A stretch of 64,000 nucleotides of DNA from an uncultured Actinomycetota bacterium. Lineage in GTDB: Bacteria > Actinomycetota > Actinomycetes > JACCUZ01. The stretch is taken from the NCBI GenBank assembly GCA_963807005.1, contig CAWDZK010000006.1:172612-236611 (forward strand). Direction: 5' to 3'. The notes beneath the pieces are model-generated. The model ran no database searches and had not been told where the DNA came from. It saw only the letters and a program-made list of their open reading frames with translations. Every line of letters begins with the position of its first letter. Position 1 is the first letter of the stretch. Position numbers and translations under genes: made by a program. Shown here in pieces: positions 2,454-59,290 of this stretch.

Positions 2454-2590
2454 AGGGACCTCCCGGCCTCGTGAGCTGTCGTGGCTGTCACCGAGCGTAA
2501 TCCGCTGCACCCGCCGGTGTGGGACCAACGGCCCTGACCGGTCGACCTGCGGCCGCCTAGCGTCGGGGACGAGGCAGCGGGAGCTGCCGA

Positions 2591-3043
2591 GTGGAGGTGT
2601 CTGCCGTGTCCGTCCAGGAGCCGACCGACCGCAGGGGGCTGCGTGTCCTGCCCTTCGACGAGTGCCTGCTCCTGCTCCGCAGGGCCGGAGTGGGACGGGT
2701 GGCATTCGTCCATGACGGTGAGCCCGAGGTACTGCCGGTGACGTTCGGGATGGACGGCACCGCGCCGGTCTTCCGCACCTCGTGGGGGTCCAAGTTCGAC
2801 GGGGCCGCCAGCGGCGGTCTGGTGGCCCTCGAGACGGACTGGGTCGACGAGCCGGGCGGGCGAGCGGGCAGCGTCGTGGTCAAGGGCACCGCTGCCGTCG
2901 ACTACGACGAGGACGCGATCGCTCGCTACGAGGCTCTCGGCGTGCCCATCTGGGTGCCGGCCGGGTCGGAGATGTTCTGGGTCCGGGTCCAGCCCGAGAG
3001 CGTCACCGGCCGCGAACTCGTGCTGCCGTCAGCGTCGCGCTAG
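2591..3043 (+). CDS. Pyridoxamine 5'-phosphate oxidase-like (FMN/F420-binding split-barrel) family protein with a GTG start.
   Basis: The 150-aa ORF has the typical PNPOx-like N-terminus (LPFDECLLLLRRAGVGRVAF...EVLPVTF) and is divergent from the kinase gene. Confidence 0.5.
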   Translation: MEVSAVSVQEPTDRRGLRVLPFDECLLLLRRAGVGRVAFVHDGEPEVLPVTFGMDGTAPVFRTSWGSKFDGAASGGLVALETDWVDEPGGRAGSVVVKGTAAVDYDEDAIARYEALGVPIWVPAGSEMFWVRVQPESVTGRELVLPSASR

Positions 3044-3244
3044 GGAACGAGCGCTCCCGGCGGGCTTCTGTCCACGATGGTGGCGGGAGGGACCGGCGCC
3101 GCTTAGGTGGCGTCACGAGGTGCACGGTGGGCGCGGGAAGCGCTGCTCTGTGCCTGTGGTTAGGTCCCTTCCGCCACCTCCATCAGACACCAGCCGGGGC
3201 GCTCTGACCAGGGTCGTTCGGCCCGCGTTGGTGCCGCTCGGCGG

Positions 3245-3757
3245 TCACACGAAGATGATCTGGGCGCCGCTCGTCATCTCGATGAAGTCGGCCGCGCTGA
3301 TGATGTCCTCGACACCGTCGTAGAGGTCGTCCATCGCGAGGTGCTGCATGTCCGCGGACATCCGGCAGGCCCACAGGTGGCCGCCGGAGTCGACGATCTG
3401 CTCGAGGAACTCGGGTACCTCCGGCACGCCGATCTCCGCGATCGACTTCTTCAGCTTCGAGGTCGCCAGCGTGGTCATCCAGGGCAGTCCACCGAGGCCC
3501 TGCGGCATGTGGGTGGCGGTGTTGCCGAGCATGGTGAACTTGAGGTCGGCCATCGTCTTCTTGTTGATCAGCTCGAAGCCCCAGAACGTGAAGAACATGT
3601 GGGTCTCGATGCCCTCGCCGAGTGCGGCGTTGGCCAGCACCAGGCCCGGGTAGGCCATGTCGAGGCTGCCCTTCGAGCAGATGATGGCGAGCTTGCGGCC
3701 GGTCTCCTGCTCGCCGAACTGCGGGACGATCGGTGCGGTGGACGTGGTGCTGGTCAT
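3245..3757 (-). CDS. DsrE/DsrF-like sulfur-relay family protein. The alternative GTG at 3784 would overlap the stop of the upstream gene.
   Basis: The motif KLAIICSKGSLDMAYPGLVLANAALGEG carries the conserved active-site Cys of DsrE-like proteins. An RBS-like GAGGAAGGA precedes the ATG at 3757. Confidence 0.65.
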   Translation of the reverse strand: MTSTTSTAPIVPQFGEQETGRKLAIICSKGSLDMAYPGLVLANAALGEGIETHMFFTFWGFELINKKTMADLKFTMLGNTATHMPQGLGGLPWMTTLATSKLKKSIAEIGVPEVPEFLEQIVDSGGHLWACRMSADMQHLAMDDLYDGVEDIISAADFIEMTSGAQIIFV

Positions 3758-3780
3758 CGCGGGTCCTTCCTCGGTCGCGG

Positions 3781-4101
3781 TCACACGCAGCCGCGCGGCT
3801 TGGGCAGCCCGGCGACGTAGGCCATCTTCTTGGCCGGCTTGACGGGGAAGAGCGCGAACAACGTGCGGGTCGGCACGCCGGCGCCCGTCGTCACCCGACG
3901 GAGCGTCGCGGTCTCGCCGTGCTCGAGGAAGTCCGAGCGCAGGAACGCGAGGATCCGCAGGTGCTCAGGGGTGAGCTCGATCCCGATCTGGTCTGCGAGC
4001 ACCCGGGCCAGGTCCTCGTCCCACTCGTCGTAGGAGGTGAGAAAGCCTTCGGCGTCGACGTGCACGTCGTGCCCGGCAATGGTGGTGACGGTCATGCTCA
4101 T
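3781..4101 (-). CDS. TusE/DsrC/DsvC-family sulfur-relay protein of the single-cysteine (TusE-like) type.
   Basis: The 106-aa protein ends in the family-diagnostic AGLPKPRGCV and has no second Cys about 10 residues upstream. An RBS GGAGG sits 6 nt before the ATG at 4101, which overlaps the SQR stop in ATGA. Confidence 0.75.
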   Translation of the reverse strand: MSMTVTTIAGHDVHVDAEGFLTSYDEWDEDLARVLADQIGIELTPEHLRILAFLRSDFLEHGETATLRRVTTGAGVPTRTLFALFPVKPAKKMAYVAGLPKPRGCV

Positions 4102-5399
4102 GCCTCCGTGTTCTCGGGGTTCTCGAGCTGCTTGCCGGCCATGCTCATGTTGGCCGGCAGGGGTAGCGATCGTCCGGGCAGCAACAGGTTCCAGTAGGCC
4201 CAGCGGAACGCGAGCTTGCCCCAGTGGTTGACCCGGGTCTCCTTCAGCAGCCGGAACGGTCCGACGTGCGGCACCGGGTAGGTACCGGGGAGGGGCTGGG
4301 TGTCGTAGTTGAAGTCCAGCAGCATCGCCCGGCCGTCGCCGGACTCGACGAAGCAGTTGGCGTGGCCGTCGAACTCGTGGGTCATCGGTCGCCCCGCGAT
4401 GTGCTCGAGGAAGTTCTCGACGAAGACGTCGATCGAGAAGTGCGCCACCGACCCCGCCTTGGAGGTGGGGATGTCGGACGCGTCGCCGAGAGCGAAGACG
4501 TCGTCGTACCCGGTCGCCAGGCTGGTACGCCGGTCCACGGGGACGAGGTTGAGCTCGTCCCCCAGCCCGGACTTCGCCACGAACTCGGCACCGAGGTTCG
4601 GGGGGACCGTGATCAGCAGGTCGAACGGAAGGGTGCGGCCGTCGTACGAGCTCAGCGTCCGTGCCTCGGGGTCGACGGCGTCGACGACGAAGTCGGGCTC
4701 GAGCCCGATGCCCCTCGTGGCGAGCAGGTGCCCGAGCCGCTGGGACGCAACAGGTTTGGTGAACGCGCCGTCCAGCGGCGTGACGTAGGTGAGCTCGACG
4801 GCGTCCCGGTGCCCGAGCCGGCGGAACCGGTCGTCGAGCAGGAACGCGAGCTCGAGCGGGGCGACGGGGCACTTGATCGGCATCTCAGCCACGTGGACGA
4901 GGACCCGACCGCCGGTGAAGCCGTTGAGCGCCTCACGCAGGGCGATGCTGCCGTCGATCGTGTAGAAGTCGTGGGCGCTGCGGCGCCAGACCCGGTCGTC
5001 GAGCAGCCCGGGGACCTGCTCGGGACGCGGGGTGACGCCGGTCGCGACCACCAGCTGGTCGTAGTCCAGCCGGGTCCCGTCGACGAGCACCACCTGGTGC
5101 TCGTCGGTGCTCACGTGGTCCACCTCGCCCCGGCGCAGGTCCACGCCGTTGACGAGGCACGCCTCGACAGGGCGCTCCAGCTGCTCCCTCCGGTAGCCGC
5201 CGAACGGCAGGAACAGGTAGCCCGGCTGGTACCGGTGCACGGCCTCCGGCTCCACGACCACGATCTCCCAGCCGGCATCCAGCCGCCGGCGGAGCCGGTT
5301 GGCGACCATGGTTCCTGCGGTGCCCGCCCCGAGCACGAGCACGGTGCGAGCACCAGGGCCCGGTCCCGGGCGGCTTGTCTCGTCAGAACCGTGGGACAT
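4098..5399 (-). CDS. FAD-dependent pyridine nucleotide-disulfide oxidoreductase, sulfide:quinone oxidoreductase (SQR)-like.
   Basis: VLVLGAGTAGTMVANRL is a Rossmann GxGxxG motif. The 433-aa size, the conserved Cys residues, the translational coupling to TusE/DsrE and the 17-nt overlap with the upstream USP all fit an SQR. Confidence 0.7.
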   Translation of the reverse strand: MSHGSDETSRPGPGPGARTVLVLGAGTAGTMVANRLRRRLDAGWEIVVVEPEAVHRYQPGYLFLPFGGYRREQLERPVEACLVNGVDLRRGEVDHVSTDEHQVVLVDGTRLDYDQLVVATGVTPRPEQVPGLLDDRVWRRSAHDFYTIDGSIALREALNGFTGGRVLVHVAEMPIKCPVAPLELAFLLDDRFRRLGHRDAVELTYVTPLDGAFTKPVASQRLGHLLATRGIGLEPDFVVDAVDPEARTLSSYDGRTLPFDLLITVPPNLGAEFVAKSGLGDELNLVPVDRRTSLATGYDDVFALGDASDIPTSKAGSVAHFSIDVFVENFLEHIAGRPMTHEFDGHANCFVESGDGRAMLLDFNYDTQPLPGTYPVPHVGPFRLLKETRVNHWGKLAFRWAYWNLLLPGRSLPLPANMSMAGKQLENPENTEA

Positions 5400-5883
5400 C
5401 AGGCACCTCGATCTGGAGCTCGGACGGGTCGGCGTGGACGGTGACGAGCTGGGGCGCCGGTGGCGGGACCGCCACGACGGGGCACGCGGCGTGTGAGAGC
5501 ACGTAGTGGCTGATCGAGCCGTGCAGTACCCGGCCCAGTCCGCGGTGCTCGTGCGTACCGACGACCAGGACGCAGTCGTCGTCCGCGGCCGCCGCAGCGA
5601 CCAGGGTCGGTCCGGGCGCGCCCTCGATGACTTCCAGCCGCCAGGTCACCGAGCTGTCGTCGCGGTCGAGTCGGGCCGTCCACTGCTCGGCCGCCTTGCG
5701 TGCGGCCTGCTCCTCCTCGTGCCGGATCTCTGCGACCGGCACGTAGGCCGACGCGGCGTCCGGTCGCCAGGTGTGGACCACGCGCAGCGTGCGCCCGGTC
5801 GTCCTGGCGAGGTCCCAGGCCCAGACCAGAGCCTGCGCTGCAGCGTCCGACTCGTCCAGTCCGACGACGATGGTTGCGCTCAT
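5383..5883 (-). CDS. Universal stress protein (UspA family).
   Basis: The 166-aa protein carries the typical UspA ATP-binding C-terminus (VLVVGTHEHRGLGRVLHGSISHYVLSHAACPVVAV) and is first in the operon with SQR. Confidence 0.7.
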   Translation of the reverse strand: MSATIVVGLDESDAAAQALVWAWDLARTTGRTLRVVHTWRPDAASAYVPVAEIRHEEEQAARKAAEQWTARLDRDDSSVTWRLEVIEGAPGPTLVAAAAADDDCVLVVGTHEHRGLGRVLHGSISHYVLSHAACPVVAVPPPAPQLVTVHADPSELQIEVPDVPRF

Positions 5884-6075
5884 GCCACCTTCTCTCCCTC
5901 ACGGCCAGCGTGGTGGCCCGGCGGCACTTGCCGGTACCGACCAAGGGCCCGCGTCCGCAGGACCACCGACCGGGGGCCGGCGACGGACCAAGGGCCTCTT
6001 GCCCGTCGGCGGCGCGGGCGGGAGGGTGGGGGTGGGCCCGGATCGGGTCCGACCCGGAACGTGGAGGAGGCTGCC

Positions 6076-6279
6076 GTGCGCGCAGAGGTCGGCGACCAGA
6101 TCATCATCAGGAGCGCCCACGTCGACGAGCCGGTCCGGGACGGCGAGGTCCTGGAGGTACGGGGACCGGACGGCGGCCCGCCCTACCGGGTGCGGTGGGC
6201 CGACACCGGCCACGACGCGCTGTTCTTCCCCGGGCCGGACGCCACCGTGCACCACCTGCACGAGCCGGGGAAGGGCTGA
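6076..6279 (+). CDS. DUF1918-domain small protein with a GTG start.
   Basis: The 67-aa protein begins VRAEVGDQIIIR...RVRWADTGHDALFFPGPDA. A perfect RBS GGAGGAGG sits 6 nt upstream of GTG 6076, and the long upstream ORF extension is an in-frame artifact. Confidence 0.55.
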   Translation: MRAEVGDQIIIRSAHVDEPVRDGEVLEVRGPDGGPPYRVRWADTGHDALFFPGPDATVHHLHEPGKG

Positions 6280-6343
6280 CGGCTGCCGAGGAACGGGCCG
6301 CGGGCCGGCCCGCCCCTCGACAGCGACTGTTGTCGCGGAGCTG

Positions 6344-7339
6344 TCAGCAGCTCAGCGCGCGGGGCCTCGACCGCGGGCTGGAGCACGTGTCCTGACCGGC
6401 GCCACCGCGGATCTGGTCGACTCCCGGCCCTCCGACGAGGACGTCGTCGCCGCCGCGGCCCTTGATCAGGTCCTCGCCGTAGCCGCCGTAGTACCGGTCC
6501 GCGTCCAGCGACGTCACCTTGTCCCGGAGGTCGTCGGCACCCTTGTTGCCGTACCCGACGTCGCTGCCCGTGTAGCCACGGACGATGTCATCTCCGGGCC
6601 CGCCGGCCATCCGGTCGTCGCCCTGACGCCCGTACAGCCGGTCGTCGTCCGGCCCGCCCTCCAGGGTGTCGTCCCCGTAGCTGCCCCAGAGCGAGTTCAG
6701 CCCGTCCTGGCCCCGCAGGGTGTCGGCCCCGCTGCCGCCGTGGAGGAACTCGACCGTGCCGGCGGTCCGCGGGTCGTCGGCCGGCACGCCGACGTTGTCG
6801 CCGCCGAGGATCAGGTCGTCGCCTGCGTCGCCGTACAGCTTGTCGGTGCCGCCCTGGCCGTCGATGCGGTCGTCGCCGGCGCCGCCGTGGACGACGTCGA
6901 AGCCGGTCGTCACCGCCTCGGCGTTGTCGCTGGTCTTCTGCAGCGAGTTGTCGCCCGCGCAGATGACGTCGTCGCCACCCAGGCCGTCGATGGTGTCGCC
7001 ACCGCCGAGCCCGAGGATGACGTCGTTGCCCGGGGTGCCGGTCAGCGTGTCGGCCTTGTCGGTGCCCAGGATGGTCGGGACCAGGCCGAAGCAGGTGAGC
7101 GGCACGGGAGTTCCCGTCGGGCTGGCGGTCGGAACAGTCGTCGGCGTGCCGGTCGGGCCGCCGGTGGCGGTCGCGGTGCCGGTGCCGTTCGGCGTGGTCG
7201 CGGCGGGCGCGGCGGGCGCGGCGCCGGTGGCGGCGCCGCTGGTCGTGGCCCCGACGAACAGCGCGGCGGTGCCGAGCAGGCCCGCCGCGCCGGTGGCCAG
7301 CAGCGTCGAGCGCAGGGGTGCGAAGGACTGTCGTGACAT
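6344..7339 (-). CDS. Secreted calcium-binding protein with hemolysin-type (RTX, GGxGxD) beta-roll repeats.
   Basis: The signal peptide MSRQSFAPLRSTLLATGAAGLLGTAALFVGA precedes a Thr/Pro/Ala-rich linker and at least 10 nonapeptide repeats (GGGDTIDGL, GGDDVICAG, GAGDDRIDGQGGTDKLYGDAGDDLILGGD...). Confidence 0.6.
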   Translation of the reverse strand: MSRQSFAPLRSTLLATGAAGLLGTAALFVGATTSGAATGAAPAAPAATTPNGTGTATATGGPTGTPTTVPTASPTGTPVPLTCFGLVPTILGTDKADTLTGTPGNDVILGLGGGDTIDGLGGDDVICAGDNSLQKTSDNAEAVTTGFDVVHGGAGDDRIDGQGGTDKLYGDAGDDLILGGDNVGVPADDPRTAGTVEFLHGGSGADTLRGQDGLNSLWGSYGDDTLEGGPDDDRLYGRQGDDRMAGGPGDDIVRGYTGSDVGYGNKGADDLRDKVTSLDADRYYGGYGEDLIKGRGGDDVLVGGPGVDQIRGGAGQDTCSSPRSRPRALSC

Positions 7340-7488
7340 CAGGTGGATCCCCGTCGAGTTGGAGTCGGTACCCCACCAAGGACGGGGTGGGCCAGCGACG
7401 GGTTCGGACGAATGCGGCAGAACGGTCACGCTCGCCGCCGGCGGGACGGATCTGCCGACCGGGCGTACGGCGTGGAAGGCTGACCCGC

Positions 7489-8523
7489 ATGTCCACTCCC
7501 GCGTGGGTCGTCGTCGGCATCGACAACGGCGGCACCAGCAACAACGCCACCGTCCTCGGCCCCGACGGCACCTTCCGGGTCGACCGCCTGGTCGAGGTGC
7601 CGAGCCGGGTCACCGAGGGGCCCGAGGTCGCGGTGGCCGCGATGGTCGAGGCGCTGGACACGGTCCTCGGCGTGACGGGCACCGAGCGCTCGGCGGTCCG
7701 GGCGGTCGGACTGGACACTCCGGGACCGGCCAGCGCCGACGGCGTGATCTCCTCGAAGGGCTCGACGAACTTCTCCTCCCCCGAGTGGTGGGGGTTCGAC
7801 GTCCGGGGCGCGCTGGAACGCCGACTCGGCGTTCCAGTCGTCTACAACAACGACGGGAACGCGGCGGCGTTGTACGCCCACCATGCGCACTTCGGGCCCG
7901 AGGCCGCGCGTCGGTCGTCGGTGTCGGCCGTGGTCGGGACCGGGCTCGGCGGCGGTGTGGTCGAGCGTGGGCAGGTGGTCCGCGGAGCGGCCGGGATGGC
8001 GGGCGAGCTGGGGCACATTCGCATCCCGCTGGACGGCCTGCTCGAAGACGGCCAGCCGGCGCCGCGGTGCAACTGCGGGAACGTCGGCGACGTCGAGAGC
8101 ATCGCGTCGCTGACCGGGATCCTGAAGAACCTGCTGCCGTTCTGGCTGTCCCGGCACCCCGAGCACCACCTCGCCGGGCTCGAGCCGGGGGAGGCGGCCA
8201 AGGCCGTGCGGGGGCTTGCGGTGGCGGGCGACGAGCTGGCGCTGGCGATCTTCGCCCAGCAGGCGGCCGCGCTGGGCCGGCTGTTCACCGTCGCGGCGAA
8301 CTTCACCGACCCGCACGCCTACTTCGTCGGTGGCGGCGTGGTCGAGGCCGAGGCGCACTTCCGCGAGTGGTTCCTCGACCGGGTGCAGGCGGGGACCGAC
8401 CTGCGAGCGGAGCAGCGCCGGATCGCGAGCTTCGCGGTGATCCCGGAGCTGGACATGGCTGGAGCCCGCGGCGCGGCTGTCGCGGCGCTCGCGGTCGCCG
8501 CCCGCCAGTCGTCCGACGACTGA
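7489..8523 (+). CDS. ROK-family protein (sugar kinase or repressor-like, probably a glucokinase or N-acetylglucosamine kinase type).
   Basis: The N-terminal VVGIDNGGTSNNATVLGPDG ATPase motif is present, and CNCGNVGDVES supplies the ROK zinc-binding Cys/His motif. Confidence 0.7.
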   Translation: MSTPAWVVVGIDNGGTSNNATVLGPDGTFRVDRLVEVPSRVTEGPEVAVAAMVEALDTVLGVTGTERSAVRAVGLDTPGPASADGVISSKGSTNFSSPEWWGFDVRGALERRLGVPVVYNNDGNAAALYAHHAHFGPEAARRSSVSAVVGTGLGGGVVERGQVVRGAAGMAGELGHIRIPLDGLLEDGQPAPRCNCGNVGDVESIASLTGILKNLLPFWLSRHPEHHLAGLEPGEAAKAVRGLAVAGDELALAIFAQQAAALGRLFTVAANFTDPHAYFVGGGVVEAEAHFREWFLDRVQAGTDLRAEQRRIASFAVIPELDMAGARGAAVAALAVAARQSSDD

Positions 8524-8698
8524 GGAGCTGCCTCGACGTGCGCACCCGACTGGTCGGCGCCCCGGAGGCGTTGGAGTTCGTCCGTCGCCTCGCCTTCGAC
8601 CCGCCGACCGCAGCCTTCGACGCCGCCTTCTCCAGCAGCTGACCTCCGAGGTGCGACGCTGTCGCCGTGACAGCGCTCCTCCGCACCTCCGGCCGACG

Positions 8699-28000: not shown

Positions 28001-28093
28001 CCAGAGCCGGTCCGGAGCCGCACGTTCAACGCGTCCGGCTCCCCATCGCGTCCTGCAGGTGGAGGATGCAGATCGGGACCCGAGGGAGCGGTC

Positions 28094-28633
28094 ATGGCGG
28101 TGCGCGAGCGGCCGGAGGCGGCGTTCCACGAGTTCGTGGCCGCCCGCTCTGCCAGCCTGTTCCGCACCGCCCTGCTCATGGTCGGTGACCATCAGCTGGC
28201 CCAGGACCTGCTGCAGGAGTCCCTGGTCAAGACCTACGTCGCGTGGCCCCGGCTGCGTGACGTGGCCAACGTCGAGGCGTACGCCCGCCGGGTCGTCGTG
28301 ACGACGTCGATCTCCTGGCGCCGGCGCCGGTCGTTCCACGAGCGCCCGGTCGACCCGCTGCCCGAGCGCGCCGTGGCGGACCTCGCCGAGTCGGTCGCCG
28401 GCCGGCTCGACCTGTGGCCGCTGGTGCAGGCACTGCCCCCGAAGCAGCGAGCGGCGGTGGTGCTGCGCTACTGCGAGGACCTCTCCGAGGCGCAGACGGC
28501 CGAGCTGATGGGCTGCTCGGTCGGTGCCGTGAAGAAGAACGCCTCGGTCGGGCTGGCCAAGCTGCGCGACCGGATGGGTGCGCGGCTCGCGTTGCCCGCC
28601 ACCACCTCGGACGAGTCGGCGGTGACGTCATGA
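28094..28633 (+). CDS. ECF-type RNA polymerase sigma factor (sigma-70 regions 2 and 4).
   Basis: Region 2 (DLLQESLVKTYVAW) and region 4 HTH (LSEAQTAELMGCSVGAVKKNASVGLAKLR) are present. Confidence 0.8.
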   Translation: MAVRERPEAAFHEFVAARSASLFRTALLMVGDHQLAQDLLQESLVKTYVAWPRLRDVANVEAYARRVVVTTSISWRRRRSFHERPVDPLPERAVADLAESVAGRLDLWPLVQALPPKQRAAVVLRYCEDLSEAQTAELMGCSVGAVKKNASVGLAKLRDRMGARLALPATTSDESAVTS

Positions 28634-29895
28634 CCACCTCGCTGCGTGACCTCGGCGCTCGCGCCGGCGCCGTCCCCGTGCCGCAGCTGGACGTGGCCGC
28701 CCTGGTCGCGGCCGGCGAGGCGCGGCTGCGCCGTCGGCGTGCGACAGCGGTGGCCGCGGTCGCGGCCGTCGTGGCGGTCGTGGTGTCGGCCTCCGTGCTG
28801 CTGGCGCCAGGGTCGAAGCAGGCGGCGCCGCCGCCGTCCGGTGGCGGCACCACGAAGGCGACGGGCGACACCGTCGAGACCAGCCTGGCCCCGCGCCTGC
28901 TGACCTACGCGGTCGGCTCGGTGATCCACTGGGGGGACCGGACTGTCGACGTCCGCGAGCAGATCCCGGGCCGATCGCGGCCGTGGCTGGGCTTCCTCGA
29001 GCCGACAGACGACGGTGTGGTGTTCATCTCCGGGCCGAGGCTGCGGAACGGGGGCGTCGCCTACGACGAGCCGGTCCCGGTGTGGTTCACCGACGGCTCG
29101 ACGCCGGTCCGGATCGGGACGACGTCCGGCAGCGGTGTACGCGGCTACCTCGTCGCCCCTTCGGCCTCGGGATCGACGGTGGCCTGGCGCGAGGACTACT
29201 ACCGCGGGGTCCTCGTCGTCTACGACACCGCTCGGATGCGCGAGGTCGCTCGCTTCGGGGACGAGAACTCCTACATCCTCAACGAGGTGTACGACGACGA
29301 GGTCTACTGGACCTCCGACGGTTCGTGCGGGACCGATGACACCCGCACCGGGTCGCTCACCCGGTGCGAGCCGGGCGCGAAGCTGATGCGCTTCGACGTC
29401 GGTTCGCAGCTGCAGACCGAGGTCACCTGGGACGAGTACGTGGCGGACCGGCGCAGCCGGCCCGGGCTGCTCACCGGCCCGGACCACCGCCCTCCCGGGT
29501 GCATCAGCTGCGTCATCAGTCCCGACGGTCTCTACCGCTCCCACTCGTTCGTGCGGCGCGGCAGCCGCCTCGTGCTCGGCGCCGACTACGGCCTCCGGAT
29601 CCATGCGCTACCGGCGTCGGACAGATCGATCACCGTCGCCCTGACCGGCACGCCGGTGAACCTTCGACTGCCGCGGGGCTACGAGGACGCGGAGCGGTGG
29701 GTGCTCACCCAGTGGCTCGACGCCGACCACGTCGTCCTCTGGGCGGACGGCGAGCCGGCGGGGGTGACTGACCGCGGCAAGACGGTCGAGCTGCTGATCT
29801 GCCAGCTGTCCACCGGTGACTGCCGGGTCGCGGCCGGCCCGGACCAGGCCGACGGCCTGTTCACGCCGCCGGGCCCGGCAGGGATCAAGGGCTGA
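28630..29895 (+). CDS. Hypothetical single-pass membrane protein, co-transcribed with the ECF sigma as a putative anti-sigma or regulatory partner.
   Basis: An ATGA overlap with the sigma gene, an N-terminal cytoplasmic segment, a TM (AVAAVAAVVAVVVSASVLLA) and a large extracytoplasmic domain with several Cys residues are present. Confidence 0.5.
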   Translation: MTTSLRDLGARAGAVPVPQLDVAALVAAGEARLRRRRATAVAAVAAVVAVVVSASVLLAPGSKQAAPPPSGGGTTKATGDTVETSLAPRLLTYAVGSVIHWGDRTVDVREQIPGRSRPWLGFLEPTDDGVVFISGPRLRNGGVAYDEPVPVWFTDGSTPVRIGTTSGSGVRGYLVAPSASGSTVAWREDYYRGVLVVYDTARMREVARFGDENSYILNEVYDDEVYWTSDGSCGTDDTRTGSLTRCEPGAKLMRFDVGSQLQTEVTWDEYVADRRSRPGLLTGPDHRPPGCISCVISPDGLYRSHSFVRRGSRLVLGADYGLRIHALPASDRSITVALTGTPVNLRLPRGYEDAERWVLTQWLDADHVVLWADGEPAGVTDRGKTVELLICQLSTGDCRVAAGPDQADGLFTPPGPAGIKG

Positions 29896-29907
29896 GTCCC
29901 GACGTCA

Positions 29908-31373: not shown

Positions 31374-31790
31374 TCAAGCAACCCGACGGGAGAGGTATCC
31401 CCCGTCGGCCAGCCCGGCCCGCACCTCGAAGACGTTGTGCGACCACGCGTCCCGGCCGCGCAGCCACGACCAGAGTGCGGCAACCCCGTACATCGGCAGC
31501 AGGACCGGGCCGAGGCAGCACGCGTACTGCGTGGCGTGCCGGGCCTCGTGCACGAGCAGCCTCGGGCGGCGGCGGAGCACGTCCTCGTCACCACGGACGA
31601 GGACCACGTTCCCGACGGTGAACGCCGGGGCCGGCACCGGCAGCCGGAAGCCGAGCGCGAGCACCAGGCCGTCCGGCCCGCTCCGGAACCGGGTCCGGCC
31701 GGCCACCCCCAGGGCCAGCCCGAGCGGGGTCGACAGGTTGACCATGTTGACCACCTGCCGGACCCGCCACCGCCGCTCCACGCCCACCAT
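31374..31790 (-). CDS. Hypothetical small protein with an HExxH motif (possible minimal metallopeptidase or DUF).
   Basis: The 139-aa protein contains LLVHEARHATQYAC. Its start at ATG 31790 abuts a G-rich tract. Confidence 0.4.
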   Translation of the reverse strand: MVGVERRWRVRQVVNMVNLSTPLGLALGVAGRTRFRSGPDGLVLALGFRLPVPAPAFTVGNVVLVRGDEDVLRRRPRLLVHEARHATQYACCLGPVLLPMYGVAALWSWLRGRDAWSHNVFEVRAGLADGGYLSRRVA

Positions 31791-31800
31791 GATCCCCCGC

Positions 31801-31840
31801 CCGCACCCCCACCCCCCATCCCTCACCCCCACTACCCCGC
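31801..31840 (-). repeat. G-rich tract on the minus strand with G-quadruplex-forming potential (GGGGTAGTGGGGGTGAGGGATGGGGGGTGGGGGTGCGG).
   Basis: It is read directly from the sequence, with at least 5 G-runs of 3 or more within 40 nt, immediately upstream of the minus-strand gene start at 31790. Confidence 0.5.
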
Positions 31841-31878
31841 CGAGTGGTGGGTTGCGCAGGGGATCCGCGGCATTCCGG

Positions 31879-31974
31879 GTGCGCAACCCACCACTCGCGG
31901 GGACGGCGGGGTGCGCAACCCACCACTCGCGGGGACGGCGGGGTGCGCAACCCACCACTCGCGGGGACGGCGTC
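31879..31974. repeat. A 32-bp direct tandem repeat in 3 copies (GTGCGCAACCCACCACTCGCGGGGACGGCGGG), with an upstream inverted copy at 31842-31858 forming a 17-bp-stem hairpin with copy 1.
   Basis: The copies sit at 31879-31910, 31911-31942 and 31943-~31972 (the last diverges at its 3' end). The inverted arm GAGTGGTGGGTTGCGCA is the reverse complement of TGCGCAACCCACCACTC. Confidence 0.7.
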
Positions 31975-32043
31975 TCAGCGCGCGGGACCGGGTGTCCGGT
32001 GGGTGGGCGGTCGACCTAGACTCGCCCGTACAACTGAAGACCG

Positions 32044-32177
32044 CTCATCCAGAGGGGCAGAGGGAACGGCCCGACGAAGCCCCGGCAACCGCACCGCGCA
32101 GCGCTGGTTCCGGCGCCCGCGGTCACGGTGCCAACTCCGACCCGTGACGGCCCGACGGCCGGCCCGGGACAGATGAG
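32044..32177 (+). ncRNA. SAM-I (S-box) riboswitch, probably a translational OFF type.
   Basis: CUCAUCcAGAGgGGCaGAGGGAacGGCCCGAcGAAgCCCcGGCAACC ... GGUGCCAAcUCC ... aGAUGAG matches the conserved S-box core (P1, kink-turn, P2, J3/4, P4). The 3' P1 strand GAUGAGG overlaps the SD GAGGAAGGA of the downstream reading frame. Confidence 0.75.
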
Positions 32178-32189
32178 GAAGGAACCTCG

Positions 32190-32264
32190 ATGACCACCGG
32201 TGCTGTCGCCCCGCTCCCGCCCCCGCTGCCACGGCAGCGTCCCTCACCGCCCCCGCTCCCGTGA
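32190..32264 (+). CDS. Putative proline-rich leader peptide or upstream ORF (MTTGAVAPLPPPLPRQRPSPPPLP).
   Basis: ATG 32190 lies 5 nt after the strong SD GAGGAAGGA, and the 24 codons end in a stop that overlaps (GTGA) the GTG start of the thrC-like gene. The structural gene has no SD of its own. Confidence 0.35.
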   Translation: MTTGAVAPLPPPLPRQRPSPPPLP

Positions 32265-33493
32265 CGCCCGACCTGGGGCCGGCGCGCCACCTGTCCTGCC
32301 GGGAGTGCGGCGCCAGCACGCCCCTGGGCCCGTTCTACGCCTGCGGCGAGTGCTTCGGGCCGCTGGAGGTGGCCTACGAGTTCGGCGCCGTCACCCGCGC
32401 CTCGATCGAGGCCGGACCGCGCAACATCTGGCGCTACCAGGACCTGCTGCCGGTGCCGTCGACGGTCCGGGACACCCCGAACCTCGAGCCCGGCGGCACC
32501 CCCCTGGTCCGGGCGCACCGCCTCGGGGCTGCGCTGGGCATGCGCGCCCTCTGGGTCAAGGACGACAGCGCCAACCCCACCCACTCGTTCAAGGACCGGG
32601 TGGTCGGGGTCGCGCTGGCGGCCGCCCGCGAGCTCGGGTTCACCGTGCTGGCCTGCCCGTCGACCGGCAACCTGGCCAACGCCACCGCTGCGGCGGCGGC
32701 GCGCGCCGGGATCCGGTCGGTCGTGCTGGTCCCCGCCGACCTGGAACAGCAGAAGATCGTGACGACCGCCGTGTACGGCGGCACGCTGGTCGCCGTCGAG
32801 GGGACCTACGACGACGTGAACCGGGTGGCCTCCGAGCTGGCCGGCGAGCACGAGGACTGGGCGTTCGTGAACGTCAACGTCCGCCCCTACTACGCCGAGG
32901 GGTCCAAGACGCTCGGCTACGAGGTGGCGGAAGGCCTCGGCTGGCGGCTGCCGGAGCAGGTCGTCATCCCGGTCGCGTCCGGCTCGCAGCTGACCAAGGT
33001 GGACAAGGCCTTCCGCGAGCTGGTGTCACTGGACCTGGTCGACGACTCGCCGTACCGCATCTACGGCGCGCAGGCGACCGGCTGCTCCCCGGTGTCCCAG
33101 GCCTTCAAGGCCGGCCACGACGTCGTGCGTCCGGTGAAGCCGTCGACGATCGCGAAGTCGCTGGCGATCGGCAACCCCGCCGACGGGCCGTACGTCCTGG
33201 ACACCTGCCGGCGGACCGGAGGCCTGGTCGAGGACGTCACCGACGAGGAGGTCGTCGAGGGCATCCGGCTGCTGGCCCGCACCGAGGGCATCTTCGCCGA
33301 GACGGCGGGCGGGGTGACCGTGGCCACGCTGCAGAAGCTGCTCGCTGCCGGCCAGCTCGACCCGGACGCCGACACGGTCGTCTTCAACACCGGCGATGGG
33401 CTCAAGACGCTGGACGCGGTCGCCCCGCACGTCGGGCCGGCCGCGACCATCCCGGCCTCCGCCGACGCCTTCACGGCGGCCGGTCTGGCCTGA
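32261..33493 (+). CDS. Threonine synthase-like PLP-dependent enzyme (fold type II) with an N-terminal zinc ribbon. It is controlled by the SAM riboswitch and so is probably a methionine-pathway (MetM-like) enzyme rather than a housekeeping ThrC.
   Basis: An N-terminal CxxC...CxxC (CRECG...CGEC) precedes the PLP-lysine region THSFKDRV. The 410-aa protein sits directly downstream of the S-box. Confidence 0.75.
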   Translation: MTPDLGPARHLSCRECGASTPLGPFYACGECFGPLEVAYEFGAVTRASIEAGPRNIWRYQDLLPVPSTVRDTPNLEPGGTPLVRAHRLGAALGMRALWVKDDSANPTHSFKDRVVGVALAAARELGFTVLACPSTGNLANATAAAAARAGIRSVVLVPADLEQQKIVTTAVYGGTLVAVEGTYDDVNRVASELAGEHEDWAFVNVNVRPYYAEGSKTLGYEVAEGLGWRLPEQVVIPVASGSQLTKVDKAFRELVSLDLVDDSPYRIYGAQATGCSPVSQAFKAGHDVVRPVKPSTIAKSLAIGNPADGPYVLDTCRRTGGLVEDVTDEEVVEGIRLLARTEGIFAETAGGVTVATLQKLLAAGQLDPDADTVVFNTGDGLKTLDAVAPHVGPAATIPASADAFTAAGLA

Positions 33494-33729
33494 CACGGCC
33501 GGTATGACCGGGTTGGCGTGATCCGGGGACGCGCTCGCCGAGGTCACGAACCGATGTCGGTGAACTGCTGACGCGGGGCGGCGGCGCTCACTACGCTGCC
33601 GCTCGGTCGAGCCTCGAGAGCAACCGCACTTGCGCACGCGAGAACCCCAACCCTGCCGGGTCGGGTCGAGCACGACCCGGGTCCCGCGCGGTGCGTGACC
33701 TGTCGGCCCAGCACAGCAGGAGACGCACG

Positions 33730-33930
33730 ATGGCTCAGGGCTCCGTCAAGTGGTTCAACAGCGAGAAGGGCTACGGCTTCATCGCTGTCGACGGTGGCGC
33801 GGACGTGTTCGTCCACTACAGCGCGATCCAGATGGACGGCTACCGCTCGCTCGAAGAGGGGCAGCGCGTGGAGTTCGAGATCACGCAGGGGCAGAAGGGT
33901 CCGCAGGCCGACTCGGTCCGCGCCGTCTGA
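33730..33930 (+). CDS. cspA: Cold-shock protein (CspA family).
   Basis: [18 protein letters not shown] with RNP1/RNP2 motifs, an RBS AGGAGA and a long upstream 5' UTR of roughly 235 nt are present. Confidence 0.85.
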
Positions 33931-34045
33931 CCCCGACCACCAGGTTCGACCGGCCCGGCCCCCACGCGGGGGCCGGGCCGGCGTGCGTCTGGGAACGGTT
34001 GACAGACCGTCGCTGCCGGAGTCGTGTCAACCGGGAGGCCCGGAC

Positions 34046-34639
34046 GTGCGAGTACGAGGTATGCCGACCGACCGAGCGGCCGCGACAGCGGCCCTCGCCA
34101 CGAGGCGCGGCGCCGACCCGGCAGTCGAGGACGACCGTCTTCCGGTGGGCGCCACGCAGACCTTCGACGGCTTCTACCGGCGTGAGCTTCCGCGCCTGGT
34201 GACGTTCGCGGCCGCGCTGGCCGGGGCGGCCGCGGCCGACGATGTCGCCCAGGAGGCGATGCTCGCCGCCTACCGCCGGTGGGAGGTCGTCTCCCAGCTC
34301 GACCTGCCCGCCGCGTGGGTCCGTCGGGTCTGCGCCAACACCGCGACCTCGCTGCTGCGCCGCCGCGGCGCCGAGGCCCGGGCCCTGATGCGCCTGGGTG
34401 CCCGGAGGCAACAGCCGTTCGAGGTGCCCCCGGAGCCGGACAACTTCTGGTGCGAGGTCCGCCGGCTGCCGCGACGACAGGCACAAGCGGTCGCACTGGC
34501 GTACGTCTACGGCCTCGGGGTGAAGGACATCGCCGCCACCCTCGGCGTCGCCGACGGCACGGTGAAGGCCCACCTCTCCCGCGGCCGCGCCACCCTCGCG
34601 GCGCGCCTCTTCCGGACAGCTGAGGAGCAGGACGCATGA
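34046..34639 (+). CDS. ECF-type RNA polymerase sigma factor. The start is GTG 34046 or ATG 34061.
   Basis: Region 2 (FDGFYRRELPRLVTFAAAL...AQEAMLAAYRRWE) and region 4 (LPRRQAQAVALAYVYGLGVKDIAATLGVADGTVKAHLSRGR) are present. Confidence 0.7.
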   Translation: MRVRGMPTDRAAATAALATRRGADPAVEDDRLPVGATQTFDGFYRRELPRLVTFAAALAGAAAADDVAQEAMLAAYRRWEVVSQLDLPAAWVRRVCANTATSLLRRRGAEARALMRLGARRQQPFEVPPEPDNFWCEVRRLPRRQAQAVALAYVYGLGVKDIAATLGVADGTVKAHLSRGRATLAARLFRTAEEQDA

Positions 34640-35445
34640 GTCTCGACGAGCTCGCCAGGACCGCGACCGAGCAGCTGTACGCGTCGGCGACCCGCGGCCT
34701 CGACCCGGCCGACATGCAGGCGCGGCTGCACCGCGGCCGCCGCCGCCGCGCCGGCGCCTGGACGGCGACAGCGGCCCTGCTCGTGGCCCTGCTGGCCGGC
34801 CTGCTCGCCGCCACCCCGTGGAACCGGCCGCCGGTGCCGGCGGACCGGGGCGGGCAGCTGCAGGTCGAGAACGTCGCTGCGTGCCGGCAGCCGGCAGTCA
34901 CCTGCCTGGGCAACCGGCGGATCCGGGTCGCGACCGACATCCCTGTCACGGTCACGGTCCCGTCGACCTTCGCGCTGCAGGTCTTCGTCGTCCCGCAGGG
35001 GCTGGAGCTGTACCGGCGGGACGTGGACCGGGCCGGTGTCACGGTGATCGAGAACGCCCGCCCGGTCCGCTACGACGGCAGCTGGCGGCGCGATCCCGCA
35101 GCGGGGCGCACCGCAGCGAGCATGGCGCACTGGCTGGCCGGGCGGCCCTTCCTGCAGGGGACCCGGGTCACGTCCCGCCGGGTCGGCGGACGCACCGCGT
35201 GGCACGTCACGGGCACCTTCCGGCCCGGCGCTGCCCTTCCCGCAAGCAAGAACCAGAGCGACGTGGCCCCGACGTTCGCGCGGGGTGCCTTCACCAGTGG
35301 CGTCACCCCGGACCTCCCCGGCACCTTCACCCTGGTCGACCAGCCGCGCGGCGGGGTCACGGTCATCTGGTCCTGGACCTACGGCGGTGACCGGTCGTTG
35401 CTGCCGGGCAACCGGGTGATGGTGCAGGCGCTGCTCCGGGGCTGA
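34636..35445 (+). CDS. Hypothetical single-pass membrane protein, co-transcribed with the ECF sigma as a putative anti-sigma partner.
   Basis: An ATGA overlap with the sigma gene, a cytoplasmic N-terminal segment, one TM (AWTATAALLVALLAGLLAA) and an extracytoplasmic domain are present. Confidence 0.45.
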   Translation: MSLDELARTATEQLYASATRGLDPADMQARLHRGRRRRAGAWTATAALLVALLAGLLAATPWNRPPVPADRGGQLQVENVAACRQPAVTCLGNRRIRVATDIPVTVTVPSTFALQVFVVPQGLELYRRDVDRAGVTVIENARPVRYDGSWRRDPAAGRTAASMAHWLAGRPFLQGTRVTSRRVGGRTAWHVTGTFRPGAALPASKNQSDVAPTFARGAFTSGVTPDLPGTFTLVDQPRGGVTVIWSWTYGGDRSLLPGNRVMVQALLRG

Positions 35446-35483
35446 GCGCCGCGCCTCTGCTCCGGCCGGAGCCTCCTGGCGGC

Positions 35484-56192: not shown

Positions 56193-59069
56193 ATGAGCTG
56201 TCCCGGGTGCGGGGCGGTCTGCGGCGGGGCCGCCAGGTTCTGCGAGCAGTGCGGGCTCCCGTTGCCGTCGACCTGCCCTGGCTGCGGCAGGCCTCGAGTC
56301 GCTGCCGCGCGGTTCTGCGCCGACTGCGGCACACCCCTCTCACCGGCGACGCAGGTGCTCGCGCCCGGCTCGGACCAGCACCTGGCCGTGGACTGGCCGG
56401 TCAGTGCTCACGTGGCCGAGCGGCGCCTGGTGTCGGTGCTGTTCGCCGACCTGGTCGGCTTCACCCAGCTGTCCGAGTCGCGCGACCCCGAGGACGTGCG
56501 CGAGCTCCTCAGCCGCTACTTCGACGTCTGCCGCGCGGTCGTGGTCCGCCACGGCGGAGTCGTGGAGAAGTTCATCGGCGATGCGGTGATGGCCGTCTGG
56601 GGTGCGCCGGTCGCCAACGAGGACGACGCGGAGCGGGCGGTGCGCGCGGCGCTGGAGCTCGTTGCCGCGGTCGGCGCGATGGGGGAGGACCTCGGTGCTC
56701 CTGACCTGCGCCTGCGTGCCGGGGTCCTCACCGGTGAAGCGGCGGTCAACCTCGGCGCCAACGGCCAGGGCCTGGTGGCGGGCGACCTCGTGAACACGGC
56801 GAGCCGGGTCCAGGCGGTGGCGGCACCGGGCGCGGTGCTCGTCGGGGAGGCGACGCGCCGTGCCACCGACGCCGCCGTGCGCTACGAGCCGGCCGGGACC
56901 CACGTGCTCAAGGGAAAGGCCGAGCCGCTGCCGCTGTACCGCGCCCTGCAGGTGGTGGCCACCCGCAGCGGTGCGCAGCGGGTCGAAGGCCTGGAGGCGC
57001 CGTTCGTCGGCCGGGACCGCGAGCTGCGCATGCTCAAAGACCTCTTCCACGCCAGCGCCGACCGCAGCACCTCGCAGCTGGCGACTGTCACTGGCATCGC
57101 CGGCATCGGGAAGTCCCGGCTGTCCTGGGAGTTCGAGAAGTATCTCGACGGTCTCGCCGGCGACGTGCTGTGGCACCGCGGTCGCTGCCTGTCCTACGGG
57201 GACGGTGTCACCTACTGGGCGCTGGCCGACATGATGCGGATGCGGATCGGTGTGGTCGAAGGTGAGCCGTCCGACGCCGTCTCGGCCAAGCTCTCGAATG
57301 CTGTCGCCCGGTACGTCTCGGACGCCGCCGAGCGCCGGTGGGTCGAGCCGCGGCTGGGTCAGCTACTGGGAGTGGACGACCGGGTCACCTCCGCACAGGA
57401 CGACCTGTTCGCCGCCTGGCGGCTGTTCGTGGAGCGGATGTCCGATGTCGCACCTGTGATCCTGGTCTTCGAGGACCTGCACTGGGCCGACTCCTCGATG
57501 CTCGACTTCGTCGACTACCTGCTCGAGTGGTCGCGCGGCCACTCGATCTTCGTCCTGGGTCTCACCCGCCCCGAGCTGGTGGAGCGGCGGCCCACCTGGG
57601 GGGCGGGCCGCAGGAACTTCAGCTCGCTCTCCTTGGACCCGCTGGCCCCGGCCGCCATGGAACAGCTGTTGGCCGGTCTGGTGCCTGGTCTTCCCGACCC
57701 GGTGGCCCAGACGATCCTCTCCAGGGCCGAGGGAATCCCGTTGTACGCCGTCGAGACGGTGCGCATGCTGATCGACCAGGGGCTGCTCGAGCAGGCGGAC
57801 GGCGGCTACCGGCCGACCGGACCGATCGTCGACCTCAAGGTGCCCGAGACGCTGCACGGCCTGATTGCCGCAAGGCTGGACGGACTCACACCCACCGAAC
57901 GTGACTTGGTCGAGGACGCCGCCGTGCTGGGCAAGTCCTTCACGCCGATGGCGCTGGCGGCGGTCACGGGTCTGTCGCTCGACCAGCTGCAGCCGTTGCT
58001 CCTGGCCCTGGTGCGCCGTGAGGTGCTGACCTTGACCAGTGACCCGCGGTCGCCCGAGCGTGGGCAGTACGAGTTCGTCCAGGACCTGTTGCGCCGGGTG
58101 GCCTACGAGACCTTGTCCCGGCACGACCGGCGGGCGAAGCACCTGGCCGTGGCCGGCCAGCTCGAGGCCGAGCAGGACGCCGACTACGACGTCGTGGAGC
58201 TGATCGCGGCGCACCTGGTCGCTGCCATGCAGGCGGTCCCCGATGCCCCGGACGCGGCGGAGACCCGTCGTCGGGCCCGAGAGATGTTGCTGCGAGCGGC
58301 CGACCGAGCCGCGTCGTTGGCGGCGCCCGCCGAGTCACTGCGCTATCTCGCCCAGGCCCTCGAGCTGACCGATGACGTGCTCGGACGGGCCAGGTTGGGG
58401 GAGCGAGCCGGGCAGGCCGCCGCAACGGCGGGGCGGATGGACGACGCCCACGCCCACATGACCCGAGCCATTGCCGGCTTCGAGTCGCAGGGCGAGGTCC
58501 ATGCCGCGGCCCGGGTCTCCGCGCGGCTGGCCGAGGTCGACTTCTACACCGACCGGTTGTCCGCGGCCGTGGCCCGGATGGACGGCGCACTGCGCGTGCT
58601 CGCGTCCGACCCGGTGGATGCCGACATCGCTGCTGCCCGGGCGCAGATGGGACGCCTGCTGTTCTGGGTCGGGCGCTCCGAGGACGCGGCGGCGCACCTC
58701 GAGGTCGCCCTGACCGCCGCCGAGCGGCTCGGTCTGAAGGAGACCTTGGCGCAGGCCCTCAACACCAAGAGCATCGTCCTGCTCGCGCGGCGGCGCCCGA
58801 CCGAGTCGGACGCCCTGCTGGAGAAGGCGCTGAGCGTGGCACTGGCTGACGACCTGCACGAGGCTGCCCTGCGGGCCTACTTCAACCTGGCCGAGCGCAA
58901 GGGGGACACCGGCCAGATCGACGACGCGATCGAGATGTACCGGGTCGGCCTGGCCCTGGCGCGGCGGGTCGGCGACACGTTCTACGACCGGCGATGCGGG
59001 CGGGCACCATCACGCCCCTTCTCGTCGTGGGTAGATGGGACGAGGCACTGGCTGTGGCCGAGGCCGTGA
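56193..59069 (+). CDS. Multidomain signalling protein with a double zinc ribbon, a class III adenylate/guanylate cyclase, an AAA/STAND NTPase and TPR repeats. Its 3' end appears frameshifted twice, and the reading frame continues to about 59286.
   Basis: The CPGCG..C..C x2 ribbons are followed by the cyclase core (LVSVLFADLVGFT...FIGDAVMAVWGAP), Walker A GIAGIGKSRL and C-terminal TPR-like helices. The C-terminal continuation is found in the other two frames (58994..59242 and 59035..59286). Confidence 0.65.
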   Translation: MSCPGCGAVCGGAARFCEQCGLPLPSTCPGCGRPRVAAARFCADCGTPLSPATQVLAPGSDQHLAVDWPVSAHVAERRLVSVLFADLVGFTQLSESRDPEDVRELLSRYFDVCRAVVVRHGGVVEKFIGDAVMAVWGAPVANEDDAERAVRAALELVAAVGAMGEDLGAPDLRLRAGVLTGEAAVNLGANGQGLVAGDLVNTASRVQAVAAPGAVLVGEATRRATDAAVRYEPAGTHVLKGKAEPLPLYRALQVVATRSGAQRVEGLEAPFVGRDRELRMLKDLFHASADRSTSQLATVTGIAGIGKSRLSWEFEKYLDGLAGDVLWHRGRCLSYGDGVTYWALADMMRMRIGVVEGEPSDAVSAKLSNAVARYVSDAAERRWVEPRLGQLLGVDDRVTSAQDDLFAAWRLFVERMSDVAPVILVFEDLHWADSSMLDFVDYLLEWSRGHSIFVLGLTRPELVERRPTWGAGRRNFSSLSLDPLAPAAMEQLLAGLVPGLPDPVAQTILSRAEGIPLYAVETVRMLIDQGLLEQADGGYRPTGPIVDLKVPETLHGLIAARLDGLTPTERDLVEDAAVLGKSFTPMALAAVTGLSLDQLQPLLLALVRREVLTLTSDPRSPERGQYEFVQDLLRRVAYETLSRHDRRAKHLAVAGQLEAEQDADYDVVELIAAHLVAAMQAVPDAPDAAETRRRAREMLLRAADRAASLAAPAESLRYLAQALELTDDVLGRARLGERAGQAAATAGRMDDAHAHMTRAIAGFESQGEVHAAARVSARLAEVDFYTDRLSAAVARMDGALRVLASDPVDADIAAARAQMGRLLFWVGRSEDAAAHLEVALTAAERLGLKETLAQALNTKSIVLLARRRPTESDALLEKALSVALADDLHEAALRAYFNLAERKGDTGQIDDAIEMYRVGLALARRVGDTFYDRRCGRAPSRPFSSWVDGTRHWLWPRP

Positions 59070-59290
59070 CACGCGACGCGCGTCGGGTCGACCACGTCTA
59101 CGGCGGCGATCACCGGGCGGAGCTGGCGGGCATGTGCTCGACGCGGGGCGACCTGACGAGGTGGGCGCCCTGCTCGCCCAGGCGCAGCCGGTGTTCGTGG
59201 CGCTGTCGGCGAAGCCGGCGCTGGACCGGCTGGAGCGGGTGACGCCGAGCCCCGGCTCCCCCGTGCTGCCCATGCCCGCGGGCTGACGGC

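Follow-up and report, generated by a model that had tools for sequence, protein, structure and literature searches.

A proline-rich reading frame behind an actinobacterial SAM-I riboswitch is best explained as the frameshifted 5' end of a metM gene

The DNA analysed here is a 64,000-nucleotide (nt) stretch of contig CAWDZK010000006.1 from an uncultured Actinomycetota bacterium (hereafter the window; G+C content 74% over its 64 kb). Near its middle, an S-adenosylmethionine (SAM)-I riboswitch aptamer is followed by a Shine-Dalgarno (SD) sequence, an open reading frame (ORF) of 24 codons and, overlapping the stop codon of the latter, an ORF of 410 codons for a pyridoxal phosphate (PLP) enzyme of the threonine synthase (ThrC) family. 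The original prediction for this locus regarded the short ORF as a proline-rich upstream ORF (uORF) through which the riboswitch would control the enzyme by translational coupling. Our analysis leads to a different view. We estimate a probability of about 90% that an actinobacterial metM gene, encoding a homocysteine synthase, is preceded here by its ordinary leader, and that the 24-codon ORF is, as the best explanation of the whole, a by-product of a single-base deletion and not an evolved regulatory peptide.

This view rests on a comparison with two sets of related loci. The genome set comprises 80 loci from metagenome-assembled genomes (MAGs) of Actinomycetes and from Lentzea, Saccharothrix, Umezawaea, Jiangella, Nocardioides and others, with protein identities to the window enzyme of 72-94%. 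The metagenome set also comprises 80 loci, of which 73 were usable for the start-codon check. Start-codon counts therefore refer to 153 loci (80 genome and 73 metagenome loci), and leader counts refer to the 137 leaders that could be anchored. The features of the locus are as follows.

32017..32022, forward strand: -10-like hexamer TAGACT, putative promoter element of the leader.
32030..32038, forward strand: conserved 5' motif of the leader, ACAACUGAA, found a few nt 5' of helix P1 in 102 of the 137 related leaders.
32042..32179, forward strand: SAM-I (S-box) riboswitch aptamer, from the RF00162 match and the RNAalifold consensus of 60 homologous leaders.
32175..32183, forward strand: SD sequence GAGGAAGGA, read off the sequence, with its first 3 nt shared with the 3' strand of P1.
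32185..32188, forward strand: CCUC, resembling an anti-SD; 105 of the 137 leaders have it in this place, 3' of the SD and 5' of the start codon.
32190..32192, forward strand: ATG, the true start of metM and the start of the sister-strain protein P0001; in 78 of 80 genome and 72 of 73 metagenome loci it reads into the enzyme without a stop.
32190..32264, forward strand: apparent 24-codon uORF, best read as metM codons 1-7 and then the Ala/Pro linker in the wrong frame, ended by a chance TGA.
32209..32210, forward strand: frameshift site, where codon 7 (GCT) lacks its final T in a base-by-base comparison with the sister contig L161.
32261..33493, forward strand: remainder of metM as read in the window (GTG, 410 codons, stop), its GTG corresponding to Val25 of the intact protein.
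32297..32353, forward strand: N-terminal Cys4 (CxxC...CxxC) zinc-ribbon motif CRECGASTPLGPFYACGEC, found in 158 of the 160 related loci.
32591..32593, forward strand: codon of the PLP-binding lysine in NPTHSFKDR, a motif shared by all 160 related loci.

The letters of the 24-codon ORF (MTTGAVAPLPPPLPRQRPSPPPLP, then a stop) are indeed present in the window. The ORF carries two PPP motifs, and its TGA overlaps the GTG of the 410-codon ORF, which lies in another frame, within the GTGA at 32261-32264. As originally predicted, no purine-rich SD sequence precedes this GTG. The short ORF does not, however, appear to be a gene in its own right. This is indicated by the finding that the start codon behind the SD opens the frame of the enzyme in 150 of the 153 related loci, and by the finding that a separate short ORF upstream of the enzyme, the conservation of which would be expected for a uORF, occurs in none of them. 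Two of the three exceptions concern the choice of the start codon, which the heuristic had mis-picked at L062, as was confirmed, and is assumed to have mis-picked at L138. The third, L011, has a frameshift of its own further downstream; in this long-read MAG the frame is lost at about position 6040-6060 of L011, within the part of metM that encodes the zinc ribbon (…RECGATT, then out of frame). The proposed translational coupling is thereby refuted on the terms of the original prediction itself, which had named a lack of conservation of the uORF and an upstream in-frame start with its own SD as counter-evidence: the enzyme starts at ATG 32190, which has its own SD and is in frame in the relatives as well as in the sister strain.

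The position of the missing base follows from this sister strain, in whose contig (ENA ERZ25039498 contig_17153, 383 kb) the genes are arranged as they are in the window. The sister protein P0001 has 434 amino acids (aa) and the N-terminus MTTGAVAPAPAPAATAASLTAPAPVTPDLG (MTTGAVAPAPAPAATAASLTAPAPVTPDLGPARHLSC), and its residues 25-434 are 100% identical to all 410 residues read in the window. Base-by-base comparison shows that the sister contig reads GTCGC-T-CCCGC where the window reads GTCGCCCCGC, which is the T-less form of GTCGCTCCCGC. In the true frame, GCT CCC GCT CCC GCC CCC GCT GCC ACG specifies APAPAPAAT, and in the shifted frame GCC CCG CTC CCG CCC CCG CTG CCA specifies APLPPPLP. The missing T thus shifts the frame of the Ala/Pro linker, and therefore yields both the PLPPPLP run and the GTGA overlap that had suggested coupling. 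Since GTG 32261 is Val25 of the intact protein, this overlap is fortuitous; judged from the aligned sequences, the overlap and the proline runs are both accidental by-products of the shift. The regulatory role that had been proposed for the proline runs through their dependence on elongation factor P (EF-P) accordingly loses its ground, the PPP and PLP motifs being what a shift by one base makes of an Ala-Pro linker (GCN CCN).

The N-termini of the relatives fit this picture. They begin with MT(T/P)GA(V/L)A..., continue with a short Ala/Pro/Thr/Ser linker that is hypervariable in both length and sequence (5-8 residues in some relatives), and then reach PDLGPARHLSCRECG. The 24-codon ORF of the window opens with MTTGAVA, like the enzymes of the relatives, and then departs from them, while the frame of the enzyme is open upstream to 32177 and reads ...PAPAPAATAASLTAPAPVTPDLG there. 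When the ORFs of relatives were compared with the window by tblastn, the 5' end of metM was the only place that was flagged consistently, all other flags being specific to single relatives. A hand count of G or C at third codon positions across the 75-nt region did not discriminate between the frames, as it gave 19 of 24 in both. Programmed -1 frameshifting was considered and rejected, because the site has no slippery heptamer and no conservation, and because the sister strain needs no such event.

The comparison of the two strains also sets the scale against which a single missing base should be judged. The sister contig and the window are 99.66% identical over the central 21.3 kb and 99.8-99.9% identical over two further stretches. 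In about 54 kb there are 101 substitutions, and of the 85 that could be placed in a coding sequence 50 are third-position changes; this bias implies that the window and the sister contig represent true strains of one species. Apart from the missing T, the two metM genes differ by one synonymous change, with no other lesion in 1230 nt. Isolated 1-nt indels number three in 54 kb, and the two besides the metM site are both intergenic. The other indels are one of 3 nt, which is in frame, and a deletion of about 479 nt with small indels around it. A third allele of the species is represented by short Logan contigs, found in an OtsB look-up, which do not reach metM. No database record was found for the 410-aa product, the upstream 138-aa gene or the OtsA of the window, and the metagenome scan returned nothing closer that covers the 5' end: loci including the 5' end have at most 90% identity, and one match of 93% starts at residue 80.

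Two further differences between the strains were observed outside the metM region. About 479 nt of the sister sequence are absent from the window at 59090-59094, with several indels of 1-2 nt around the junction (58990-59130). The gene affected encodes a guanylate-cyclase/AAA/TPR protein, of 1137 aa in the sister, and the absence may reflect a repeat-mediated deletion or an assembly collapse. In addition, the match to the sister contig breaks off sharply at 8545/8546: on the upstream side the window has no detectable similarity to it (L162 1-3570), and on the downstream side the identity is 99.9%. Positions 1-8545 of the window are thus either specific to the strain or the product of a join made in assembly.

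We consider it about equally likely that the missing T results from an error in the assembly or consensus and that it is a very recent, strain-specific mutation. In the case of an error, the T would be present in the organism, metM would be intact with 434 codons, and no uORF would exist in vivo. This case, which has close to an even chance of being correct, is supported by the intact frames of the sister contig and of 150 of the 153 relatives, and by an enzyme that is otherwise 100% conserved with a single synonymous change. Moreover, the Flye-style contig names of the sister assembly suggest long reads, and the frameshift that disrupts the zinc ribbon, an essential part of metM, in the similar MAG L011 shows that indel errors do occur in such assemblies. 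It should be noted, however, that the missing base lies outside any homopolymer in the sister sequence (GC-T-CCC). Furthermore, random errors would mostly have hit coding sequence, whereas the other two isolated 1-nt indels in 54 kb are intergenic. This rare and non-coding pattern looks as if it had been filtered by selection, which counts against an error and mildly favours a real mutation.

A real deletion could have been tolerated. Ribosomes would then load at the SD and ATG controlled by the riboswitch, translate 24 codons, stop at the UGA and reinitiate at the overlapping GUG, so that MetM would be made without only its dispensable, variable N-terminal linker. The GTGA directly precedes the first conserved residues (PDLGPARHLSC), and the linker is hypervariable, with no more than 5-8 residues in some relatives. 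The selection-filtered look of the indels points in the same direction, and so does the third allele, which indicates that the microdiversity of the species is real. On the other hand, GTG 32261 has no SD and the two PPP motifs would slow the ribosomes on the leader, which predicts a low yield; nor was a second sequence with the deletion or a record of a 410-aa product found. We therefore hold this possibility to be tentative and, on balance, somewhat unlikely. Also unlikely is the reading in which the deletion is real and the riboswitch-controlled start now drives a newly born proline-rich ORF of 24 codons, with no MetM produced except through termination and reinitiation at the GUGA or through occasional -1 slippage within the C-rich tract.

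It is rather doubtful that a real deletion has inactivated metM, leaving a nascent pseudogene in an organism that obtains its methionine by another route or by uptake. The sequence evidence is the same as for a tolerated deletion, a 5' frameshift is a common first step of gene loss, and no metO gene is found nearby. However, the 1230 nt contain no other lesion, the riboswitch is the same as that of the sister, and the two strains diverge too little for decay to be judged. Lastly, it is highly improbable that the short ORF is a proline-rich leader that evolved, and has been conserved, to link translation of the enzyme to the sensing of SAM and to stalling that depends on EF-P. The only support for such a leader is the sequence of the window itself (SD, ATG, 24 codons with two PPP motifs, GTGA overlap), whereas no related locus has such an ORF, the frame is continuous in a 99.7%-identical strain, and MTTGAVA is the conserved N-terminus of the enzyme.

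For the riboswitch that precedes metM, a covariance scan with RF00162 matched 32042-32179 on the forward strand with 57.9 bits, against a gathering threshold of 44.4 (E 8.6e-11, model positions 1-108 of 108), and SAM-I was the only Rfam family matched in the 64 kb. P1 is formed by CUCAUC (32044-32049) and GAUGAG (32172-32177). The four-way junction of P1, P2a/b, P3 and P4 was recovered by RNAalifold from 60 leaders; most of its pairs are invariant and compensatory changes occur in three pairs, so that the support comes more from conservation than from covariation. The CGG of the P2 loop is complementary to the CCG of J3/4, as a pseudoknot between the two would require, and both are invariant in the leader alignment and hence give no covariation signal. 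The leaders of ten relatives were tested with RF00162 and all ten scored 65-87 bits, while the core motifs of SAM-I were found upstream of the enzyme gene in nearly all fetched genome and metagenome loci. The aptamer is identical in the window and the sister strain. Given this score and this conservation, we regard the SAM-I riboswitch of the window as real, in agreement with the original prediction of an S-box aptamer.

How the aptamer would act on metM is suggested by its position. The 3' strand of P1 overlaps the SD by 3 nt, as had been noted before (GAUGAG at 32172-32177, GAGGAAGGA at 32175-32183), and this geometry is general: GAUGRG abuts a purine-rich SD in 137 of 137 leaders, with the start codon 12-27 nt further on. 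No terminator-like site was found in 31700-33800. Because P1 overlaps the SD and a terminator is absent, translational control is likely, and masking of the ribosome-binding site in a P1-dependent manner is the output best supported by the sequence data; the prediction of translational control is to this extent upheld, although the switching is inferred. Two points weigh against this reading. Occlusion of the SD by P1 is partial, as it affects only 3 of the 9 SD bases, and neither the minimum free energy (MFE) fold of the window leader nor the constrained ensembles of 13 leaders with P1 on or off gave a consistent pattern of occlusion of the SD or the start. Since folding yielded no consistent sequestering structure, we do no more than infer that P1 occludes the SD. 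Beyond the aptamer, RNAalifold predicted no structure in the 60 leaders. The CCUC at 32185-32188 can pair with GAGG at 32175-32178, and such pairing and P1 are mutually exclusive. In the MFE fold of the window, UCAUC also forms a helix with a second GAUGA, located at the start codon; as this second GAUGA is unconserved, the helix was rejected as a general feature.

Just 5' of P1, the motif ACAACUGAA is maintained across several actinomycete families, and in 44 of the 102 leaders that have its ACAAC motif a TAnnnT sequence lies 13 nt further 5'. A scan with the sigma-70 consensus found no match for a leader promoter. The two elements together are probably the transcription start region and the -10 element of the promoter, and a role of ACAACUGAA in the RNA is possible.

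Taken together, the following course of events may be proposed. A promoter just 5' would produce a transcript beginning near ACAACUGAA, which folds as a canonical SAM-I aptamer. Upon binding of SAM, P1 would be locked and its GAUGAG strand would take the first three bases of the SD, so that the others would lie next to the base of the folded aptamer, at a distance of 7 nt from ATG 32190. Judging from this arrangement, which is conserved, and from the absence of a terminator, ribosome loading would then be reduced and less enzyme would be made. Translation from ATG 32190 would yield a ThrC-family PLP enzyme of about 434 aa, in which a short, variable N-terminal linker of Ala, Pro and Thr is followed by a Cys4 zinc ribbon, and by orthology this enzyme would be MetM, for which the literature gives the formation of homocysteine from O-phosphohomoserine and a thiocarboxylated carrier. 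In the window, the absence of the third-base T of codon 7 causes the linker to be misread as PLPPPLP up to the chance TGA over Val25 (GTG).

We next consider whether the enzyme is MetM or ThrC. The 410-codon ORF encodes a fold-type II PLP enzyme (PALP, PF00291, 243 bits), and the lysine in NPTHSFKDR is presumably the Schiff-base lysine, as in fold-type II PLP enzymes in general. The gene is best read as metM, encoding a MetO-thiocarboxylate-dependent homocysteine synthase that uses O-phosphohomoserine, because orthologues with 73-82% identity to the window enzyme carry a ThiS-type metO gene directly downstream. The preference for a methionine-related role over threonine synthesis, already expressed in the original prediction, thus appears to be borne out by these MetO-linked orthologues and the conserved SAM riboswitch. 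It has to be weighed against this reading that the assignment is based on orthology to MetO-linked relatives, and that hidden Markov models (HMMs) fail to separate MetM from ThrC: the thrC model TIGR00260 is passed with 276.8 bits at a cut-off of 167.1.

The latter score is also an argument for a bona fide ThrC, through which the riboswitch would tie threonine synthesis to SAM. The relatives are all named 'threonine synthase' in the databases, and the best matches in the PDB are threonine synthases (E 1e-43 to 1e-50). Against a ThrC stand the translational linkage of close orthologues to a ThiS-type carrier, the SAM riboswitch conserved upstream in essentially all relatives, and a score below the cut-off of the equivalog NF006050 (285.9 versus 303). 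In addition, one report describes MetM as a ThrC homologue that converts O-phosphohomoserine to homocysteine with the MetO thiocarboxylate and is often, indeed routinely, misannotated as threonine synthase (bioRxiv 10.1101/2024.10.14.618325). A ThrC is for these reasons very unlikely, and the names of the relatives are probably wrong. No second PALP or ThrC gene was found in the 64 kb window.

The linkage to metO can be described more closely. In 33 of the 80 genome loci, a metO-like gene for 91-97 aa lies 0-100 nt 3' of the stop codon of the orthologue, often with an ATGA overlap. The products end in ...IPAVAGG and match the ThiS family (PF02597) with 48-55 bits. These loci belong to Jiangellaceae, Nocardioidaceae and Streptosporangiaceae-like MAGs, and show the order metM-metO-(csp), csp being a cold-shock protein gene (L013-L015, L019, L030, L031, L035, L041, L044-L058, L061, L063, L068, L070, L071, L073, L076-L079). 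A metM gene with the riboswitch and without adjacent metO is found in the clade of the window (L001-L012, L016 and L021) and in Pseudonocardiaceae (Lentzea, Saccharothrix, Umezawaea and Actinokineospora). The window itself is of this type, as had been predicted for its immediate surroundings, and this is a point that tells against the MetM reading. An HMM built from the 33 MetO proteins matched nothing in the whole 64 kb window or in the flanks of the closest clade; the ThiS, JAMM and ThiF Pfam families are absent from the gene tables of the sister contig, which correspond to about 8.5-64 kb of the window with a gap of about 1.4 kb; and genes for Mec and MoeZ are likewise not found within the 64 kb.

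A SAM-I riboswitch that controls metM is an arrangement already known. According to PMC12172450, a SAM riboswitch lies upstream of metM in Streptomyces albulus, and the GapMind text names Mec and MoeZ as shared factors in the maturation and activation of MetO (bioRxiv 10.1101/2024.10.14.618325). The window shares with S. albulus a ThrC-homologous PLP enzyme behind a SAM riboswitch, the role of which would be the conversion of O-phosphohomoserine to homocysteine, and the window protein has orthologues with a ThiS-type carrier gene immediately downstream. It differs in that the 5' end of metM is frameshifted and that metO is not adjacent, as is also the case in the clade L001-L012 and in Lentzea and Saccharothrix, and for the window not present within 64 kb. 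The S. albulus metM-metO locus was reportedly the subject of work by Hasebe et al. in 2024 (Appl Environ Microbiol 90:e01247-24), and the likeness drawn here relies on the literature description and on the MetO-linked relatives.

The aptamer itself corresponds to RF00162 over its full length, including the P1-P4 junction and the core elements AGAGGGGC, GAGGGA, GGUGCCAA and AGAUGAG. It differs from the classical Firmicutes arrangement in the absence of a terminator/antiterminator and in an SD that begins inside the 3' strand of P1. Such a translational style of SAM-I platform is usual in high-GC Actinobacteria. With the CysM-CysO-Mec system of Mycobacterium tuberculosis, the proposed pathway has in common a fold-type II PLP enzyme, an O-phospho amino acid and sulfur from a ThiS/MoaD-like thiocarboxylate; however, CysM belongs to another subfamily that is not ThrC-like, its product is different, and none of these genes is found in the window. 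Coupled leader ORFs and polyproline arrest peptides resemble the short ORF of the window in the PPP motifs and the GUGA overlap with the main ORF. They are, however, defined by a conserved separate ORF, whereas the short ORF considered here occurs in a single sequence and results from a 1-nt deletion inside the main ORF.

The wider neighbourhood contains, in this order, otsB, a pair of genes with an extracytoplasmic function (ECF) sigma factor, otsA, a small gene, the riboswitch and metM, csp, a second ECF sigma pair, groEL and a gene for an M29 peptidase. The conserved neighbour downstream of metM, in metM-[metO]-csp synteny, is the following.

33730..33930, forward strand: cold-shock protein gene csp (CSD, PF00313, 106.5 bits).

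Each of the two ECF sigma genes (window 28040-29900 and 33990-35480) is followed by an unknown gene that possibly encodes an anti-sigma factor. Both segments, of about 1.9 kb and 1.5 kb, are insertions relative to L001-L012, are also found in the sister strain, and bracket the otsA-metM-csp block. Between the 138-aa unknown gene (31374-31790, reverse strand) and the metM leader, a divergent intergenic region contains a 32-nt unit, GGGTGCGCAACCCACCACTCGCGGGGACGGCG, in three perfect tandem copies (31877-31972), with an inverted partial copy at 31827-31858. Its 18-nt core has four matches in the window, all at 31827-31972, where 0.01 would be expected. The repeats are found in the sister strain, and the stretch is missing from the 84%-identical relatives L001-L012.

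The present findings imply that an apparent polyproline uORF with a coupled stop can arise from a single indel in a GC-rich Ala/Pro linker, and that a comparative check is needed before a mechanism is proposed for such an ORF. Should the deletion be real, the window would offer a snapshot of a 5' frameshift that creates a coupled leader ORF and is rescued by it; rescue by reinitiation would then be an accident of one strain and no designed regulator. The conserved ACAACUGAA and CCUC elements could help to define the platform of translational SAM-I switches in Actinobacteria. The gene of the window would be one more MetM annotated as 'threonine synthase', and the many actinomycete metM genes without an adjacent metO raise the question of the sulfur donor that their products use.

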